From positions 1 through 64,000 of the forward strand of contig KE561071.1 in NCBI GenBank assembly GCA_000442015.1: a stretch of 64,000 nt of DNA, given 5' to 3'. The notes under the pieces were generated by a model. That model did not search any database, was not told where the DNA came from, and was given only the letters and a program-made list of their open reading frames with translations. Below, piece after piece: positions 4,772-12,130 of this stretch (its first letter is position 1; each line of letters begins with the position of its first letter). The position numbers and the translations under genes are program-made. The stretch is from Rozella allomycis CSF55 (lineage: Eukaryota).

Positions 4772-4837
4772 TCTATATAAGAAACATGACGAACACAATC
4801 CATTTTTTAATGCGAGCGAAGCGAGTACAACCGCTAG
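4772..4837 (+). mobile_element. Putative miniature non-autonomous Helitron or Helitron remnant
   Basis: A|TCTATAT... 5' end, subterminal GCGAGCGAAGCGAG hairpin and CTAG|T 3' end, sitting between A and T with no TSD. Confidence 0.55.
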
Positions 4838-4915
4838 TACACTTTTATAAATAGAAACATTTGAAACGCTATCGGTTGATGTAATTATCTGTAACATAAT
4901 TGTCATAACTCTTCT

Positions 4916-6004
4916 TTATTGAATCCCTGTTTTTGAAGTATCTAAATTTCCAATGAGCTTAAGGCTTTTGCTTTGTGTTTCTAAAGTTTTAGAGACATTC
5001 GAAGAATGGCTGTATTTCTGCGCCATTGTGTCTATATAAATGTATAGACGGTTCAAATGTGAAGAAAGGAAAGGCACATGCGGACAAACATCATTCGAGC
5101 TACCAAAAATAAGGAAAATAAAAACACCAATGGGAGAAATCAGGATAGGCAATCCGGGAAAAGAAGAAAAAGCCGAGTTTCCTGGTGAATACGTTGCTAT
5201 TGCATGATCAATGATCCAAGGAATACCAGCTAGAGAATTCACTACCACAATAACAACACATCTAAATATTAATTGCGGTTTTAAAGCGCTTTGTGCACCA
5301 GCGGACAAAGATTTTTTACGTGCCTGTAGAACTATTTTTGCTAGAGATATACCACAAAATGTAGCTACACCGAATAGAACTATTTGCAGTATCAACAATA
5401 GATCACGAAAACGATAGTTGTGCAAATCAATAGTGCAATAAAAATTTGATATATAAAAAAGCGGATGTGAATCATCAATTTGATTTGCAGTTTCTCCGAC
5501 CAATAAATATTGAAGGATGACAACTACCACCATTAGGAGCGACGAATTCATCCATGAATATTTTCCTTCAGCCAGAAAGAACTTTGTTAAAAGTGTTCGG
5601 ATTCTGGTTTCCGGTACAATGTTTTGAGTGCACATCAAATACAAAACGGATGTATAACCCAATGACACCATTAACAAATGCGCAGATATAAAATATGATA
5701 TGTTGGCCAATACATAGCATTCAAATTTGGAGAATAGCTCAAAATCATATGAGAAATCAATTATTTTCTCAGACCTAAAATTCGTCAGTACGACTGTCTT
5801 GATTGCGGTGAGTGAAAAGAAGCAGTGAACTGTTACAGCGGAAATCGCACCATGAAAATATTGCGGATACATTGGTTTTGAGCATTTCTTGGGATCAGTA
5901 GCTACAGAATATAATAATCTGAACACGGCCACCAAATGAAGACAGATTGCTGATAGGGATAGCAGATGGGCTAAACAGATGATAAAAACATAGATAGCAT
6001 TCAT
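4916..6004 (-). CDS. 7TM GPCR-like protein (cAMP-receptor/Git3-like), copy 2
   Basis: Intronless ORF with seven hydrophobic segments, Cys at the top of TM3 and in ECL2 (FYCTID), R...P in TM6 and G....FG in TM7. Confidence 0.7.
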   Translation of the reverse strand: MNAIYVFIICLAHLLSLSAICLHLVAVFRLLYSVATDPKKCSKPMYPQYFHGAISAVTVHCFFSLTAIKTVVLTNFRSEKIIDFSYDFELFSKFECYVLANISYFISAHLLMVSLGYTSVLYLMCTQNIVPETRIRTLLTKFFLAEGKYSWMNSSLLMVVVVILQYLLVGETANQIDDSHPLFYISNFYCTIDLHNYRFRDLLLILQIVLFGVATFCGISLAKIVLQARKKSLSAGAQSALKPQLIFRCVVIVVVNSLAGIPWIIDHAIATYSPGNSAFSSFPGLPILISPIGVFIFLIFGSSNDVCPHVPFLSSHLNRLYIYIDTMAQKYSHSSNVSKTLETQSKSLKLIGNLDTSKTGIQ

Positions 6005-6279
6005 GGTTACCGTTGTTGCTACGGTTGAACCCGGAACCCAGAAAATCAACGCGAATATAGTCTAAACTATTTGGATACACGAAGTTATTAACAACGGAGA
6101 TAAAATCTTGCATTTCGACATTTTAAAGGGTGGATAAGATAGAACTCACTCATTTTACTTTTTGTAGAATCGAATTACAACAGGATTGAATTATAAACTA
6201 TTTAAGTTTCAAAACTTCTTCGAAAAAATCTTGACCACACTGAGATGCAACCACATAAAAGGCTATTCCTAACTCTGTT

Positions 6280-7368
6280 TTATTGAATAACAGATTTTGA
6301 AGTACCTGAATTCCCAGTGAGCATGATACTTTTGCTTTGCGTTTCCATTGATTTTGAAAATTTCGAAGAATTGCTGTATTTTTGCGCCATTCTGTCTATG
6401 AAAATGTACAGACGGTTCAAATGTGAAGAAAGAAAGGGCACATGTGGACATACATCATTCGAGCTACCAAAAATAAGGAACACGAAAATTCCAATAGGTG
6501 AAATCAGGATAGGCAATCCGGGAAATGAAGAGAATGGTGAGTTTCCTGGTACATACGTTGCAATTGCATTATCAACGACCCATGGACTCCCGGCCAGGGA
6601 ATTCACTACTACAATAACAACACATCTAAATATCAATTGCGGTTTTAAAGCGCTTTGTGCGCCAGCGGATAAAGACTTTTTGCGCGCCTGTAGAACTATT
6701 TTTGCAAGAGATACACAACAAAATGCAACTACGCTAAATAGAAGTATTTGTAGTATCAACAATAGATCACGAAAACGATAGTTGTGCAAATCAATAGTGC
6801 AATAAAAATTTGAAATATAGAAAGGGGGATGCGGATCTTGAATTTGATTTAGAGTTTCTCCTACTAATACATATTGAAGGATGGCAACCCCAATCATTAA
6901 GACTGAGGAATTTATCCATGAATATTTTCCTTCAGCCAGAAAGAACTTTGTTAAGAGTTTTCGGATTCTGGTTTCTGGTACTATGTTTTGAGTGCACATT
7001 AAATACAAAACGGATGTATAACCCAATGATACCATTAGAATATAGGCAGACATGAAATATGATATGTTGGCCAAGACATAGCATTCAATTCTGGAGAATA
7101 TATCAAAGTTATATGAGAAATCAATTATCTTGTCTGAATTTAGATTTGTCATTGCGACTGTTTTGAGAGCAGTGAATGAGAAGAAGCAATGAACTATGAC
7201 AGCGGAAATCGCACCATGAAAATACTGCGGATACATTGGCTTTGAACATTTCTTGGGATCAATGATCACAGAGTATAGTAATCTGAACACGGCCACCGAT
7301 TGAATACAAATTGCTGATAGAGATAAAAGATGGACTAAGCAGATGATTAAGACATATAAAGCATTCAT
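6280..7368 (-). CDS. 7TM GPCR-like protein, copy 3
   Basis: 362-aa intronless ORF, collinear with and highly similar to copy 2. Confidence 0.7.
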   Translation of the reverse strand: MNALYVLIICLVHLLSLSAICIQSVAVFRLLYSVIIDPKKCSKPMYPQYFHGAISAVIVHCFFSFTALKTVAMTNLNSDKIIDFSYNFDIFSRIECYVLANISYFMSAYILMVSLGYTSVLYLMCTQNIVPETRIRKLLTKFFLAEGKYSWINSSVLMIGVAILQYVLVGETLNQIQDPHPPFYISNFYCTIDLHNYRFRDLLLILQILLFSVVAFCCVSLAKIVLQARKKSLSAGAQSALKPQLIFRCVVIVVVNSLAGSPWVVDNAIATYVPGNSPFSSFPGLPILISPIGIFVFLIFGSSNDVCPHVPFLSSHLNRLYIFIDRMAQKYSNSSKFSKSMETQSKSIMLTGNSGTSKSVIQ

Positions 7369-7768
7369 GGCAAGTTGGTAACCGTCGATATTTGACTGCT
7401 AAACAACCTTTCATCGATAGGAAATTAATTTGAATTTTAAATAAAGATGAATGAATTAATTAAAATAGTTTCAACTTTCAACTTCCTTTAAAAACGCGAC
7501 CAGCTCAGAAAGTCCCCTTTAGCATGCAAGGAATACTACTATAGTCTAATTCTATACCGAATATGAAATATTGAAATATATGAAATTGATCGCACTTCAA
7601 GTCTTCAGTTCCGTTTGACATATGTATTAATGAAAAATAGCCCAGCCGCAGGTACCTTTGGGCTTAAACTCGAAACCTAGAAATGAATTTAAATAGAGCG
7701 ACATTATTGAACTCGTTATTTTAACGCACTGGCAAGTCGTCAAAATGGAATAGCGTAATGAAATACTA

Positions 7769-8521
7769 ATGTTGAAATTTCAAGTTTTGGAGTTGGAAAT
7801 TGATTGCTCTTCAGTTCCCGTTGACATTTCCATTCCATTAAATTTTCCACCACTGGTTTCTTGCTTTGGAATAAGATCCATGTTTGACGAGCCTATTTTA
7901 TCAATTTCGGAGGGTGCCTCGGTAAACTGTAGCAAACTGATGATTACACCTCACGCTCATGGAACCCATACAGAATGCATATCTCATATTTCGAAATGTG
8001 AAACAAATATGTCTACTGTGCAATATGGTGCGCATAGCCTTGCTTTATTGATTAGATGCGAGATTTCAAATCGAAGTGAAACAAATGAGACTTGTCCAAG
8101 AAACTCTAAAGCTATCGATAGGGTTATAACACGCAATTCTATAGAGTATGTTATGCAAAAGTATGAAAATTTAAAAACTCACATAAACGCAATTATGATC
8201 CGCACATATGCGTCCGATTTACAATTTCCTATTGATTTTACAAATACCAATCCAGCATACTTTACAAAAGAAGCAATGTCTTTAATTTCAGAATGGAGTG
8301 ATCATGTGCTTGTTGATCTGCCATCAATTGATCGCGAAGATGACGGCGGGGAATTGCTAGCTCACAAGGCCTTTTTCAACAATAACACCAACAAGCTGGT
8401 AACGGAACTATGTCGATTTCCTGATTCTCTTGATGAAGGACTGTACATGCTAACCATGTCGCTTCCGAGATGGAATACTGATGCTGTTCCCACCCAGCCA
8501 CTAGTATCAAGGGTCAAAAGA
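7769..8521 (+). CDS. Cyclase-family metallohydrolase (kynurenine formamidase KynB-like) domain with no stop before the HIT region
   Basis: Metal motif PHAHGTHTECISH, plus DLPSIDREDDGGELLAH, VTEL and TDAVP; intronless. Confidence 0.85.
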
Positions 8522-9040
8522 ATGTCTAATTGTATATTCTGCAAAATAATCCAAGGTAAAACAAATACTTAAAATATTAAAAGGTAAGATTTAATATTAT
8601 TTTTAAGCAGGAACAATCCCGTCATTTAAAATTTACGAAAACGAGCTAACATATGCGTTTATGGATATCCAACCTTTATCTATGGGTCATATAGTAAATG
8701 AAATTATTAAATTCGAGTAGCTTGTTATCCCAAAAACACATGCACAGTTTTTCCATGAAGTGCCTGATGAAAATTTGCAGGATTTGCTACCTGTAGCTAA
8801 AAAGATTGCTAGTGTGTTTCATAAAAAGGGAGCGTATAACATTTTGCAAAACAATGGACGACTTGCGAACCAGGTAATTGTAGATTAGCTAAGATATAGG
8901 CTGTTGACCATGTGCACTTTCACATAATTCCCAAGAACAGTGAAGAAGACGGATTGGGTGTTAGATGGAATTCGATGAAGCCCAATATGGAAGATTTGAA
9001 AAAGCTGGCTGACGAGATCCAATCGAAAATTCCGGCCTAG
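8522..9040 (+). CDS. HNT1: HIT-family nucleotide hydrolase (Hint/Hnt1)
   Basis: Spliced: MSNCIFCKIIQG|TIPSFKIYENELTYAFMDIQPLSMGHI|LVIPKTHA...YNILQNNGRLANQ|AVDHVHFHIIPK, containing the HxHxH triad. Confidence 0.93.
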
Positions 9041-9149
9041 TGAGATTGGCACCACTAATAAATTATATTTATATGATGTGCTGGAACGTGTTATTTGATG
9101 ATTTTGGATGCCTTTTAGCGTTTGACCCTGGTTGTGTATTTTAGAAAAA

Positions 9150-12130
9150 ATGGACAACGACTTTTATGACGAATTCGGCAACTATATAGGCCCTGAGGAG
9201 GGTTCCGGATCAGATAATGAGAAATCTAGTGAGAGTGAGTATGGCGAGGCTGCAGTTGAGGAAGCAGAGGGCGAGCAGGCTGTGGTTGTTGGGCCGATAG
9301 ATAGTGGTATGATGAATGTATGTGAGGGATGTAGTTGTTGATGGCCGCGTGATATTGCATGAAGATAAAAAGTATTATCCGAGTGCTGAGGAGGTGTATG
9401 GGGAGGAGGTTGAGGCGATGGTGCAGGATGAGGATACGCAAGCGCTGAGTGTTCCGATTATTGCGCCATTGAAGACGAAGCGGTATGTGTTGGAGGAGCG
9501 GGATTTGCCCGAGACGACGTATTCGAAGCAGTTTCTGGTAGAGTTGATGGGGTACCCTGAGAGGATAAGGAATGTGAGTATTGTTGGGCATTTGCATCAT
9601 GGCAAGACTGCGTTGATGGATGTGTTGGTGCGGGAGACGCATGAGGTGCGTGGGGGCAGGAAGGTTGCTGGTCGGTATACGGATGCGAATGTGATTGAGC
9701 GGGAGAGGGGGTGTAGTATAAAGGCGAGTCCGATGAGCTTGGTTATGAGTACTAGTAAGGGGACGTCGTATTTGATGAATGTTGTTGATACGCCTGGTAA
9801 GAGGGATGTGATGAGTGATATAGGACATGTGAATTTTAGTGATGAGGTTAGTGTGAGTATGCGGGTGAGTGATGGTGTAGTGTTGGTTGTTGATGCAGTT
9901 GAGGGAGTGATGATGAATACTGAGAGGGTTGTGAGGATGGCGTTGAGGGAGGGGTTGCCGCTTGTGTTGATGATTAATAAAGTGGATCGGTTGATACTGG
10001 AGTTGCGGTTACCGCCGAATGATGCGTATTTCAAGTTGAAGCATACGATAGAAGAGTTGAATATGATGATTAAGGGGATGGGCTATAAGAACAGATTGTC
10101 ACCAGAGTTGGGGAATGTGTGTTTTGGGTCTAGTTTGATGGGATTTTGTTTTAGTTTAAAGTCGTTTGCCAGGATGTATTCCAAGGAAGTAGATTGTGAA
10201 GAGTTTAGTAAAAGATTGTGGGGAGATTTGTATTTTAATGAGAAGAGTAGAAGATTTACCAGGGAAAGTGAAGGGAATGAAAGAAGTTTTGTGCATTTTG
10301 TGTTGAAGCCAATTTATAAATTGACATCTATTGTGATAGGGGAGGAAACAAAGGAGATTAAAAAGATGATGATTGAAGAGGTTGGAGTTGAATTGACAGA
10401 GAAAGAGTTGAATTTGGATGTTGAAATGTTGATGAGAAGAGTTTATGAGATATTTTTTGGAGATTTTTCTAGTTTGATTGATATGATTGTAGAAAAGTTG
10501 CCAAGTCCAATGGAGATGAAGAGATTAGGTAGAGGGAATGAGAGTGATGGAGAAGTTTGTTTGAATTTGATAAAGAATTATTCGAATGAAGATGGAACAG
10601 AATTTTATAGTTTTGGGAGGGTGTTTAATGGAACGTTGAGGGTTGGAATGAAAGTGAAAGTTTTGGAGAATGAAGATGAAGAAGATTTGAAGATACAAAA
10701 GATTGAAGAGCTTTATGTGTATGAAACCAGGTAAAATTAGTAGATTTAATGATATGAAAGATATAAAATAAAAGTTGATAAAATTCCAGCTGGAAATTTT
10801 GTTTTGATTAAAGGAGTTGAATTTTGTAAAAGTTGTACAGTTTATGAAGAAAGAAAAGAAGAGATTGAAATGTTTAAAGAAATAAAGTTTGATACAAAAT
10901 CTATAGTAAAGTTATCAATTGAACCCAACAATCCATCAGAATTACCAAAAATGTTGGATGGATTAAAGAAAGTATTAAAAACATATCCCTGTTTAGAAAC
11001 TAAAGTTGAAGAATCTGGAGAACATGTAATCTTTGGAACTGGAGAATTCTATTTAGATTGTGTGTTGCATGATTTAAGAAATTATTCTGAAATTGAAATT
11101 AAAGTTTCTGATCCAATTGTAAAGTTTTCTGAAACTGTAATTGACACTTCTTGCATTAAATGTTACGCTGAAACTCCAAACAAAAAGAATAAACTCACAA
11201 TGATTGCTGAACCTTTAGACAAGGGGCTAGACATTGATATTTCATTGGGTCTTTTAAACAACAAACCAAATCAATTCAACATTCTCAAAAATAAATACAA
11301 TTGGGATGTTTTAGCCGCAAATTCCATTTGGGCTTTTGGTCCTTCCAATCTAGATTCAAATATCCTCTTGGATGATTCTCTACTGTCAAACAAATCTCTC
11401 TTAAACTCTACAAAATATTTTATCACTCAAGGGTTTCAATGGTCAGTCAGAGAAGGTCCTCTATGCGATGAACGTAATCTTTCTCTTTATCTCATCATAG
11501 CCATCAGAAACGTTAAATACAAAATACTTGATGCTGTTCTAGCTAATGAATCAATCTACCGCGGTGGTGGTCAAATCATTCCAACAGCTCGTCGTGTTTG
11601 CTATTCATCTTTTCTTATGGCTTCTCCTAGACTCATGGAACCTGTTTATCTAGTAGAAATTCAAACTCCAGCTGATTGTGTTTCTGCCATATATTCGGTT
11701 CTTGCAAATCGTCGGTACATTCATTCCTCTATTCTAATTACAGTGGTCATGTCACTCAAGATATTCCCAAAGCTGGTTCTCCTCTTTACACTCTAAAGGC
11801 TCTCCTTCCTGTAATCGATTCATTCGGCTTTGAAACTGATCTCAGAACGCACACAAACGGTCAAGCATTCTGTCAACAAGTCTTAGATCATTGGCAGGTA
11901 TCACCTTTTCTTTATAATTCTCTTAGATTGTTCCAGGTGATCCTTTAGATAAATCCATTCTACTAAAACCACTAGAACCAGCATCTGGCCATCAACTAGC
12001 TAGAGATTTCATGCTCAAAACTAGAAGAAGAAAAGGTTTGTCAGAAGATGTTGGCGTACAGAAATATTTTGATGATCCCATGCTGCTTGAATTGGCTAGG
12101 TCTAATATTGTCAATCAGCCATTTATTTAA
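9150..12130 (+). CDS. SNU114: U5 snRNP 116 kDa GTPase (Snu114/EFTUD2)
   Basis: [72 protein letters not shown]; six short introns. Confidence 0.97.

Follow-up and report, generated by a model that had tools for sequence, protein, structure and literature searches.

A gene in Rozella allomycis that probably joins a KynB-like cyclase of bacterial type to an HNT1 hydrolase in one reading frame

The DNA analysed here, called the window below, is a stretch of 64,000 nucleotides from Rozella allomycis CSF55 (contig KE561071.1, positions 1 to 64,000), an organism that stands near the root of the fungi, next to the microsporidia. Between positions 7769 and 9040 it carries what is probably a single gene for a two-domain protein of 387-389 residues, in which a KynB-like cyclase, most likely obtained by an ancient horizontal transfer, precedes an ordinary HNT1/HINT nucleoside phosphoramidase. 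The gene is made up of the following parts.

7769..8521, plus strand: coding part of the cyclase-family domain (KynB-like metal hydrolase), intronless, 251 codons, without a stop of its own
8522..8555, plus strand: HIT (HNT1) exon 1, starting with ATG and encoding MSNCIFCKIIQ plus the opening base of a Gly codon; it follows directly on the final codon of the cyclase
8556..8610, plus strand: HIT intron 1, 55 nucleotides (nt), 16% GC
8611..8693, plus strand: HIT exon 2 (..GTIPSFKIYENELTYAFMDIQPLSMGHI), Pfam HIT score 22.0 bits, identical to the public protein P0209
8694..8720, plus strand: HIT intron 2, 27 nt
8721..8873, plus strand: HIT exon 3, Pfam HIT score 33.9 bits
8874..8899, plus strand: HIT intron 3, 26 nt
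8900..9040, plus strand: HIT exon 4, which encodes the histidine triad HVHFHII and ends in a TAG stop at 9038-9040

A single open reading frame (ORF) runs along the plus strand from 7769 to 8572 (267 residues) and contains ...VSRVKRMSNCIFCKIIQGKTNT before its stop. Its first 251 codons close with ...PLVSRVKR, and codon 252 is the ATG at 8522, followed by SNCIFCKIIQ, a start of the HINT type. The two ATG codons are in frame, since (8522-7769)/3 gives 251 codons, and no stop lies between them. The linker between the cyclase and HIT parts has zero length in Rozella, and in an alignment of homologues the junction falls at the C-termini of bacterial cyclases. The ORF ends at an in-frame TAA (8570-8572) within HIT intron 1, 16 codons in, so that retention of this intron would yield a free cyclase. 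An earlier note on this DNA had described both the passage of the intronless cyclase frame into the HIT start and the stop at 8572 that awaits an unspliced message. We found both as described, the former in the ORF, in the database protein EPZ33143.1 and in a second assembly; a stop ahead of 8522, which the note had named as grounds for abandoning the fusion, occurs in the fused protein model of neither assembly. The three HIT introns are very short and AT-rich (16-27% GC), and each begins with GTAA and ends with AG; the first has an internal GTAAG at 8584, which in principle would allow it to be read as two mini-introns in tandem.

In Pfam, residues 18-189 matched profile positions 1-142 of PF04199 (Cyclase) with 27.5 bits, above the cut-off of 23.1, which places the N-terminal half in that family. 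Translations of the three downstream exons scored 22.0, 33.9 and 15.3 bits against PF01230 (HIT), the last of these below the cut-off. When spliced in silico, the gene agreed letter for letter with P0209 (EPZ33143.1, Rozella allomycis CSF55) over 382 residues, from VLELEID to the C-terminus, and addition of a further exon and intron at the 5' end extended the match to all 389 residues.

7630..7651, plus strand: alternative first exon (MKNSPAA) of the EPZ33143.1 model, 22 nt; the model with this exon reproduces P0209 exactly
7652..7784, plus strand: putative intron of the EPZ33143.1 model, 133 nt, GTACCT...TTCAAG

A second annotation of Rozella allomycis CSF55, RKP17423.1 (P0001, 387 residues), predicts the same fused protein, and the missing stop is therefore not an error of one assembly. 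RKP17423.1 begins with MLKFQV, that is at ATG 7769, so the public models disagree on the N-terminus. Bacterial homologues start about 15-20 residues ahead of the DISIPL motif, as does ATG 7769, and this start would thus appear to fit them better than that of EPZ33143.1. Compared to the window protein, RKP17423.1 carries seven substitutions, all in the cyclase half (7/251, against 0/136 in the HIT half) and mostly conservative (D/E, I/V, S/T). Between assemblies that bear the same strain label, such differences suggest allelic or strain variation together with a looser constraint on the acquired domain. One metatranscriptome run, matched by species label and with almost no shared words, gave no contigs on 7600-9100 at 90% likeness, which says nothing about expression.

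Compared with fungal HNT1 domains (from HNT1-containing proteins of Aureobasidium, Pseudocercospora and Parasitella), the HIT half shows 59% identity, and it matches the Candida albicans HINT structure 6iq1 with 48% identity and a template modelling (TM) score of 0.85 in Foldseek. The HIT domain spans exons 2-4, with an intact HVHFH triad and the HINT fold, features of the HINT branch. By these measures the HIT half is a normal, native, intron-bearing fungal HNT1, in agreement with the eukaryotic HNT1 that the earlier note had proposed as the fusion partner. A tree of the HIT domain (27 rows, 140 columns) was poorly resolved, with the HIT half among fungal sequences. Whereas an ordinary Hnt1 is a free protein of about 135-150 residues, in Rozella the domain forms the C-terminal part of the 387-389-residue chain.

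The cyclase half was compared with bacterial kynurenine formamidases (KynB), which are its closest solved sequences (E-value 0.007). An AlphaFold2 model of the whole protein had a mean pLDDT (predicted local distance difference test score) of 92.6 and a pTM (predicted TM score) of 0.80, with a pLDDT of 83 for the junction block. In Foldseek, the best matches of the cyclase domain were KynB from Bacillus anthracis (4co9, TM 0.85), Pseudomonas aeruginosa (4cob, 0.84) and Burkholderia cenocepacia (4cog, 0.81), followed by weaker matches to a cyclase-phosphotriesterase (0.71) and an isatin hydrolase (0.60). The fold is thus the same, whereas identity to the KynB proteins is 17-22% and the Rozella domain exceeds them in length by some 40 residues and has an insert behind the first His motif. 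According to the parts of the KynB paper available to us, the binuclear zinc site is held by His50, His54, Asp56, His161 and Glu173, the catalytic residue is His60, and the second shell consists of Pro148, Ser149, Asp151 and Asp198 (PMC4243253). Alignment to 4co9, read against this ligand list, gave the following correspondences, all six zinc and catalytic residues and all four of the second shell being matched.

Zinc ligands, Rozella = KynB: H62 = His50; H67 = His54; E69 = Asp56; H199 = His161; E213 = Glu173
Catalytic residue, Rozella = KynB: H73 = His60
Second shell, Rozella = KynB: P185/S186/D188 = Pro148/Ser149/Asp151; D238 = Asp198

For E213 = Glu173 the HMMER pairing was shifted by two columns on the strength of the invariance of E213. 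All ten residues (H62, H67, E69, H73, P185, S186, D188, H199, E213 and D238) are invariant across 13 homologues, and the ligand set of KynB is complete with an Asp to Glu exchange at E69. The domain is therefore probably a KynB-like amidohydrolase with a binuclear metal site.

Whether this hydrolase is a kynurenine formamidase in the strict sense was considered from the bacterial side. The Rozella domain belongs with a bacterial subfamily annotated as 'cyclase family protein', found in Bacteroidota, Ignavibacteriota/Kapaibacteria and Bradymonadales (for example P0016 from Urechidicola croceus, P0017 from Bradymonadaceae and P0003 from Crocinitomicaceae). It shares with these proteins its length, the column of its C-terminus and the motifs PHAHGTHTEC and DLPSxDxExDGGxLxAH, which the earlier note had already taken for a bacterial-like variant; the bacterial members are free-standing, whereas the Rozella copy lacks a stop and continues into HNT1. 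In the five bacterial carrier genomes tested, tryptophan dioxygenase (TDO) and kynureninase were both present in all five, the KynB equivalog TIGR03035 (NCBIfam) scored above its cut-off in none, and the subfamily member was the sole PF04199 gene in three. This pattern of a missing enzyme makes N-formylkynurenine formamidase our best guess, and hydrolysis of N-formylkynurenine by the cyclase domain would be about an even bet. Kynureninase occurs in the flanks of eight of 160 loci, from several lineages, and TDO in the flanks of one. At one Myxococcota-labelled locus (L010, 6001-8065, the same as G004:C94) kynureninase follows the cyclase immediately, its frame overlapping the cyclase end in another frame, and at L015 both kynureninase and TDO lie within the flanks.

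Several observations weigh against assignment to the kynurenine pathway. The Rozella domain reaches 25.7 bits with TIGR03035, whose cut-off is 223.05, and we therefore file it as KynB-like and not as a KynB orthologue. The first motif reads HAHGTHTE, with one residue more than HxGTHxD and Glu in place of Asp. The conserved neighbours in Flavobacteriaceae (HemN-like radical SAM, DUF4230, DUF4260, YjbR) are not kynurenine genes. Among nine bacterial loci that were annotated, eight from Bacteroidota and one from Myxococcota, a HemN-like radical SAM gene recurred upstream (7/9) and YjbR downstream (8/9) in the Bacteroidota loci, with DUF4230 or DUF4260 in several. The Flavobacteriales run consists of HemN-like radical SAM, cyclase, DUF4230 and/or DUF4260, and YjbR (L008, L016, L031, L048, L056, L064, L071 and L073, at about 4800-8300 in each); it hints at a housekeeping role with no obvious tie to tryptophan. 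A further protein, the presumably bacterial P0326 (505 residues), combines the same cyclase subfamily with a fumarylacetoacetase-family C-terminal domain. It is possible, though clearly less likely than not, that the domain is an active metal hydrolase working on another amide, a lactam or an ester, as the altered motif, the equivalog score, the flavobacterial synteny and P0326 would all allow, and as isatin hydrolases and cyclase-phosphotriesterases, which share the fold, exemplify. Against this stand the better structural match to KynB (TM 0.81-0.85 versus 0.60-0.71), the retention of every KynB ligand and second-shell residue, the adjacency to kynureninase in several lineages, and the carriers that possess TDO and kynureninase and no canonical KynB.

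The earlier note had proposed a search for further proteins in which a cyclase is joined to HIT, and two were found. The C-terminal 188 residues of P0001 were searched against proteins of 212-678 residues and gave 88 matches, of which P0001 alone carried PF04199 in the precomputed domains. One of the 88, P0124 (332 residues), covered 99% of the query and proved to have the cyclase part also. In BLASTP it aligns with the Rozella protein at 37% identity in 364 columns, which begin at the PHA.GTH motif and take in the entire HIT domain, and it is encoded by a single uninterrupted ORF comprising the cyclase, a 13-residue linker and a complete HIT domain, with neither intron nor stop between them. 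An HMMER search with P0209 over 1.84 billion representative proteins returned 15449 at an E-value of 0.001 or below, and inspection of the best 150 of these revealed one more protein that spans the junction, P0289 (268 residues), which has the cyclase and continues beyond the junction for 45 HIT residues. Between DLPSID and ...LSEGHI, a stretch that includes the junction, its identity to the Rozella protein is 48%; after GHI come 15 divergent residues and then a stop, exactly where Rozella intron 2 starts. We infer that a prokaryote-style gene call has here entered an intron at a shared position. HIT-HIT tandems accounted for five of the 13 proteins scanned in Pfam, which included the other two-stretch matches of the HMMER search.

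The frame from cyclase to HIT is therefore conserved in three divergent lineages (Rozella, P0124 and P0289), and since two divergent proteins keep it, the open frame of the fusion is not due to chance. The architecture appears to be rare, with three lineages among the matches listed from billions of proteins searched. A scan of metagenomes from the Joint Genome Institute (JGI) with the eukaryote-like profile described below yielded 80 loci, 29-36% identical to Rozella, none with a HIT gene beside the cyclase. At 168 loci from bacteria and metagenomes, the 3-6 kb around the cyclase contained no HIT gene, and the cyclase-HIT pair was thus not imported as an operon.

Four points qualify the picture of one shared, expressed fusion. 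Between Rozella and P0124 the cyclase domains share just 30% identity; the HIT domain of P0124 is 68% identical to an ascomycete HNT1; the HIT tree fails to unite the three fused proteins; and the fused chain is known as a prediction from the gene sequence. Because the P0124 HIT domain is nearer to ascomycete HNT1 and its cyclase so distant from that of Rozella, the same fusion could have arisen or spread more than once. A further point is that all three proteins keep a Met at the start of HIT, which is also expected if HNT1 is made separately from an internal start. Such a locus would yield two proteins, a free cyclase ending at TAA 8570-8572, through retention of intron 1 or an early end of the transcript, and a free HNT1 from ATG 8522 whose transcript would begin inside the cyclase ORF. 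Overlapping transcripts can occur in compact parasite genomes, and the in-frame stop in intron 1 would serve the purpose. We nevertheless regard this arrangement as unlikely. P0124 has no intron or stop between the domains and P0289 has none for 45 HIT residues, so that intron-1 retention cannot release a free cyclase in either and is not a conserved way of producing one. Two independent annotations give one protein, the junction is ordered in the AlphaFold model, and there is no intergenic room for a separate promoter. With no space between cyclase and HIT, the only candidate for promoter space is a stretch upstream.

7369..7629, no strand: AT-rich spacer separating the fusion gene from the divergent ORF upstream (6280-7368, minus strand)

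By position, this spacer would be the sole non-coding room for a promoter of the fusion gene. The divergent ORF beyond it (362 residues, about 260-400 bp from the fusion gene) has many hydrophobic stretches and no Pfam match. Directly downstream of the fusion gene lies an intron-bearing gene for EFTUD2/Snu114, the GTPase of the U5 small nuclear ribonucleoprotein (snRNP), at 9150-10734 and beyond. The bin 8001-10000 has the top GC content (41.7%) and the top GC skew (0.315) of the window.

The origin of the cyclase half was approached through its relatives. A homologue search within a size range found 2482 proteins at an E-value of 0.001 or below, and in the best 120 of these, besides Rozella and one Protostelium transcript, all source names are bacterial or generic enzyme names. 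No fungal homologue occurs in the same 120, relatives beyond Rozella among the listed matches are 28-37% identical and mostly from Bacteroidota, and a profile built from five eukaryote-like sequences added no further eukaryote-labelled member among the 120 it listed. The genomes of at least 591 prokaryotic species encode a relative. A cyclase of bacterial type, as the earlier note had it, is what these searches describe. The cyclase ORF (38.6% GC, and 33.5% at third codon positions, GC3) now matches its host in base composition (36.3% and 33.6% in a neighbouring host ORF). The Protostelium sequence (P0089, from a Protostelium nocturnum transcriptome, 284 residues) is unfused and 44-46% identical to bacterial, including Bradymonadaceae, proteins; it represents either a separate gain by transfer in an amoebozoan or bacterial material carried over into the transcriptome. 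Two more unfused proteins, P0002 and P0208 (267 and 275 residues, on contigs of 16 and 13 kb), are closest to the Rozella cyclase by score, among the matches listed, and in trees, and have CHAQATHTEC where Rozella has PHAHGTHTEC. If their source were a eukaryote, they might show the state before the fusion.

Phylogenies were computed after dropping the fragmentary L072 from all trees. In a tree of 90 rows, in which 75 of the 79 prokaryotic relatives are labelled Bacteroidota, the unfused P0002 joins Rozella, P0124 and P0289 in a single clan (Shimodaira-Hasegawa-like approximate likelihood ratio test, SH-aLRT, 97), all on long branches. A more careful tree of 55 rows, from which P0289 (branch length 8.6) and 34 of the 79 bacterial loci were omitted, placed the eukaryote-like rows in an 11-row set with Bradymonadales-like Myxococcota, a trio and Protostelium (support 99/91). 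When the tree was rooted with three distant paralogues, the root fell among Bacteroidota and the eukaryote-like clan (SH-aLRT 92) was nested inside bacteria, which makes horizontal acquisition likely. The phylogeny that the earlier note had asked for thus gave no grouping with fungal homologues, none being present among the listed matches, and its suggestion of a horizontal gain is borne out as likely. Its comparison with Bacteroidetes was right as regards most members of the family and does not extend to the donor, as the trees put Rozella, with weak support, nearer to the Myxococcota group.

This placement meets three difficulties. The nodes that give the nesting are weakly supported (29-85). 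The outgroup rooting is itself weak, because the match of the three PF04199 paralogues to the subfamily profile is marginal. With 1.8-8.6 changes per column the eukaryote-like branches are long, and the tree program warns of long-branch attraction. Given these branches and the weak deep support, the trees establish neither a donor nor a single origin. The marks of a transfer, namely nesting, absence from related eukaryotes and integration into the host, are all seen, loosely so in view of the nodes and branches just described, and from these comparisons we hold a bacterial origin of the cyclase half to be likely, with good confidence. The opposite view would be that the cyclase is an old eukaryotic gene, lost nearly everywhere and kept, evolving fast, in a few lineages. 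Long branches make the position inside bacteria insecure, and a single clade of Rozella, P0124, P0002 and Protostelium is not rejected (log-likelihood difference 1.03; approximately unbiased test, p-AU, 0.228). We consider this history improbable all the same: out of some 2500 homologues only Rozella (in two assemblies), P0124, P0289, P0002/P0208 and one Protostelium transcript stand apart, the eukaryote-like profile did not enlarge this set among its 120 listed matches while prokaryotic carriers abound, the outgroup root lies among Bacteroidota and not on the long eukaryote-like branches, and the cyclase ORF has no intron where the adjoining HIT gene has three. That the locus is an artefact, through bacterial contamination or a chimeric assembly, is hardly credible, for although the close relatives of the cyclase are only bacterial and it lacks introns, it is present in two separate assemblies, flanked by intron-bearing eukaryotic genes (EFTUD2/Snu114 downstream) in a 64-kb AT-rich window, equal to its host in GC and GC3, just 28-37% identical to any listed bacterial protein, and joined to HIT at the same junction in P0124 and P0289.

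The reading that we prefer, a transferred cyclase fused to a resident HNT1, can be put as a sequence of events. Long ago a bacterial cyclase ORF would have entered the space that separates the promoter of HNT1 from its ATG; the cyclase stop would then have been lost, restoring HNT1 translation as part of one chain. Such a course would explain why the linker has zero length in Rozella, why linkers elsewhere are short and vary, and why the Met has been retained. In the resulting protein the cyclase domain may act on N-formylkynurenine and the HIT domain would go on working as it normally does; no evidence ties the chemistry of one domain to that of the other. HINT proteins are dimers. KynB is described as a dimer as well, in the available parts of its paper (PMC4243253), and with both parent enzymes dimeric we infer that the fused chain may also oligomerise.

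Rozella and its relatives are well known to have received genes by transfer, and kynurenine formamidase in fungi is normally an unrelated alpha/beta-hydrolase (Bna7). The literature search found no paper that treats Rozella and kynurenine together, and none on a cyclase-HNT1 gene among the top-ranked matches, supplements lying outside the search. A eukaryotic precedent for gaining a bacterial cyclase-type formamidase by horizontal transfer comes from the red alga Galdieria sulphuraria, whose cyclase-type arylformamidase is reported, in the portion of the paper available to us, to have been acquired from Actinobacteria (PMC4217691). Compared by description only, that case differs in donor group and recipient, and the same portion reports no fusion to a second enzyme. 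P0326 demonstrates that the cyclase subfamily tolerates a C-terminal partner, in that instance one unrelated to HIT. Transfer followed by fusion is thus already known as a process; what is new is the cyclase-HINT domain architecture that results from it. The earlier note had called this a two-enzyme fusion that it did not recognise, which agrees with the rarity of the architecture and the lack of a paper found on it, and has to be qualified in that both public annotations already model one protein, named merely 'HIT-like'.

It is tempting to speculate further that cyclase-HINT is an ancient bifunctional enzyme that selection has maintained in Rozella-like fungi, derived from a formamidase gene captured in the 5' leader of HNT1, with its domains acting on linked steps. 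Such steps would go beyond the mere sharing of a promoter and might concern, for example, the handling of tryptophan-derived or adenylated host metabolites. We regard this extension as doubtful, and offer it as such. If the fusion proved to be recurrent, strong selection for the cyclase-HINT pairing would be implied.

Bacterial gene transfer is one way in which parasites like Rozella rebuild a reduced metabolism, and the locus offers an example of gene capture, in which a bacterial gene apparently gained expression ahead of a housekeeping gene and fused to it, with three divergent versions of the junction available for comparison. For the bacteria, the large Bacteroidota subfamily may represent their missing formamidase of the kynurenine pathway. 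For the HIT family, the architecture suggests a possible functional link between a formamidase-like domain and HINT, a protein whose cellular role is poorly understood.

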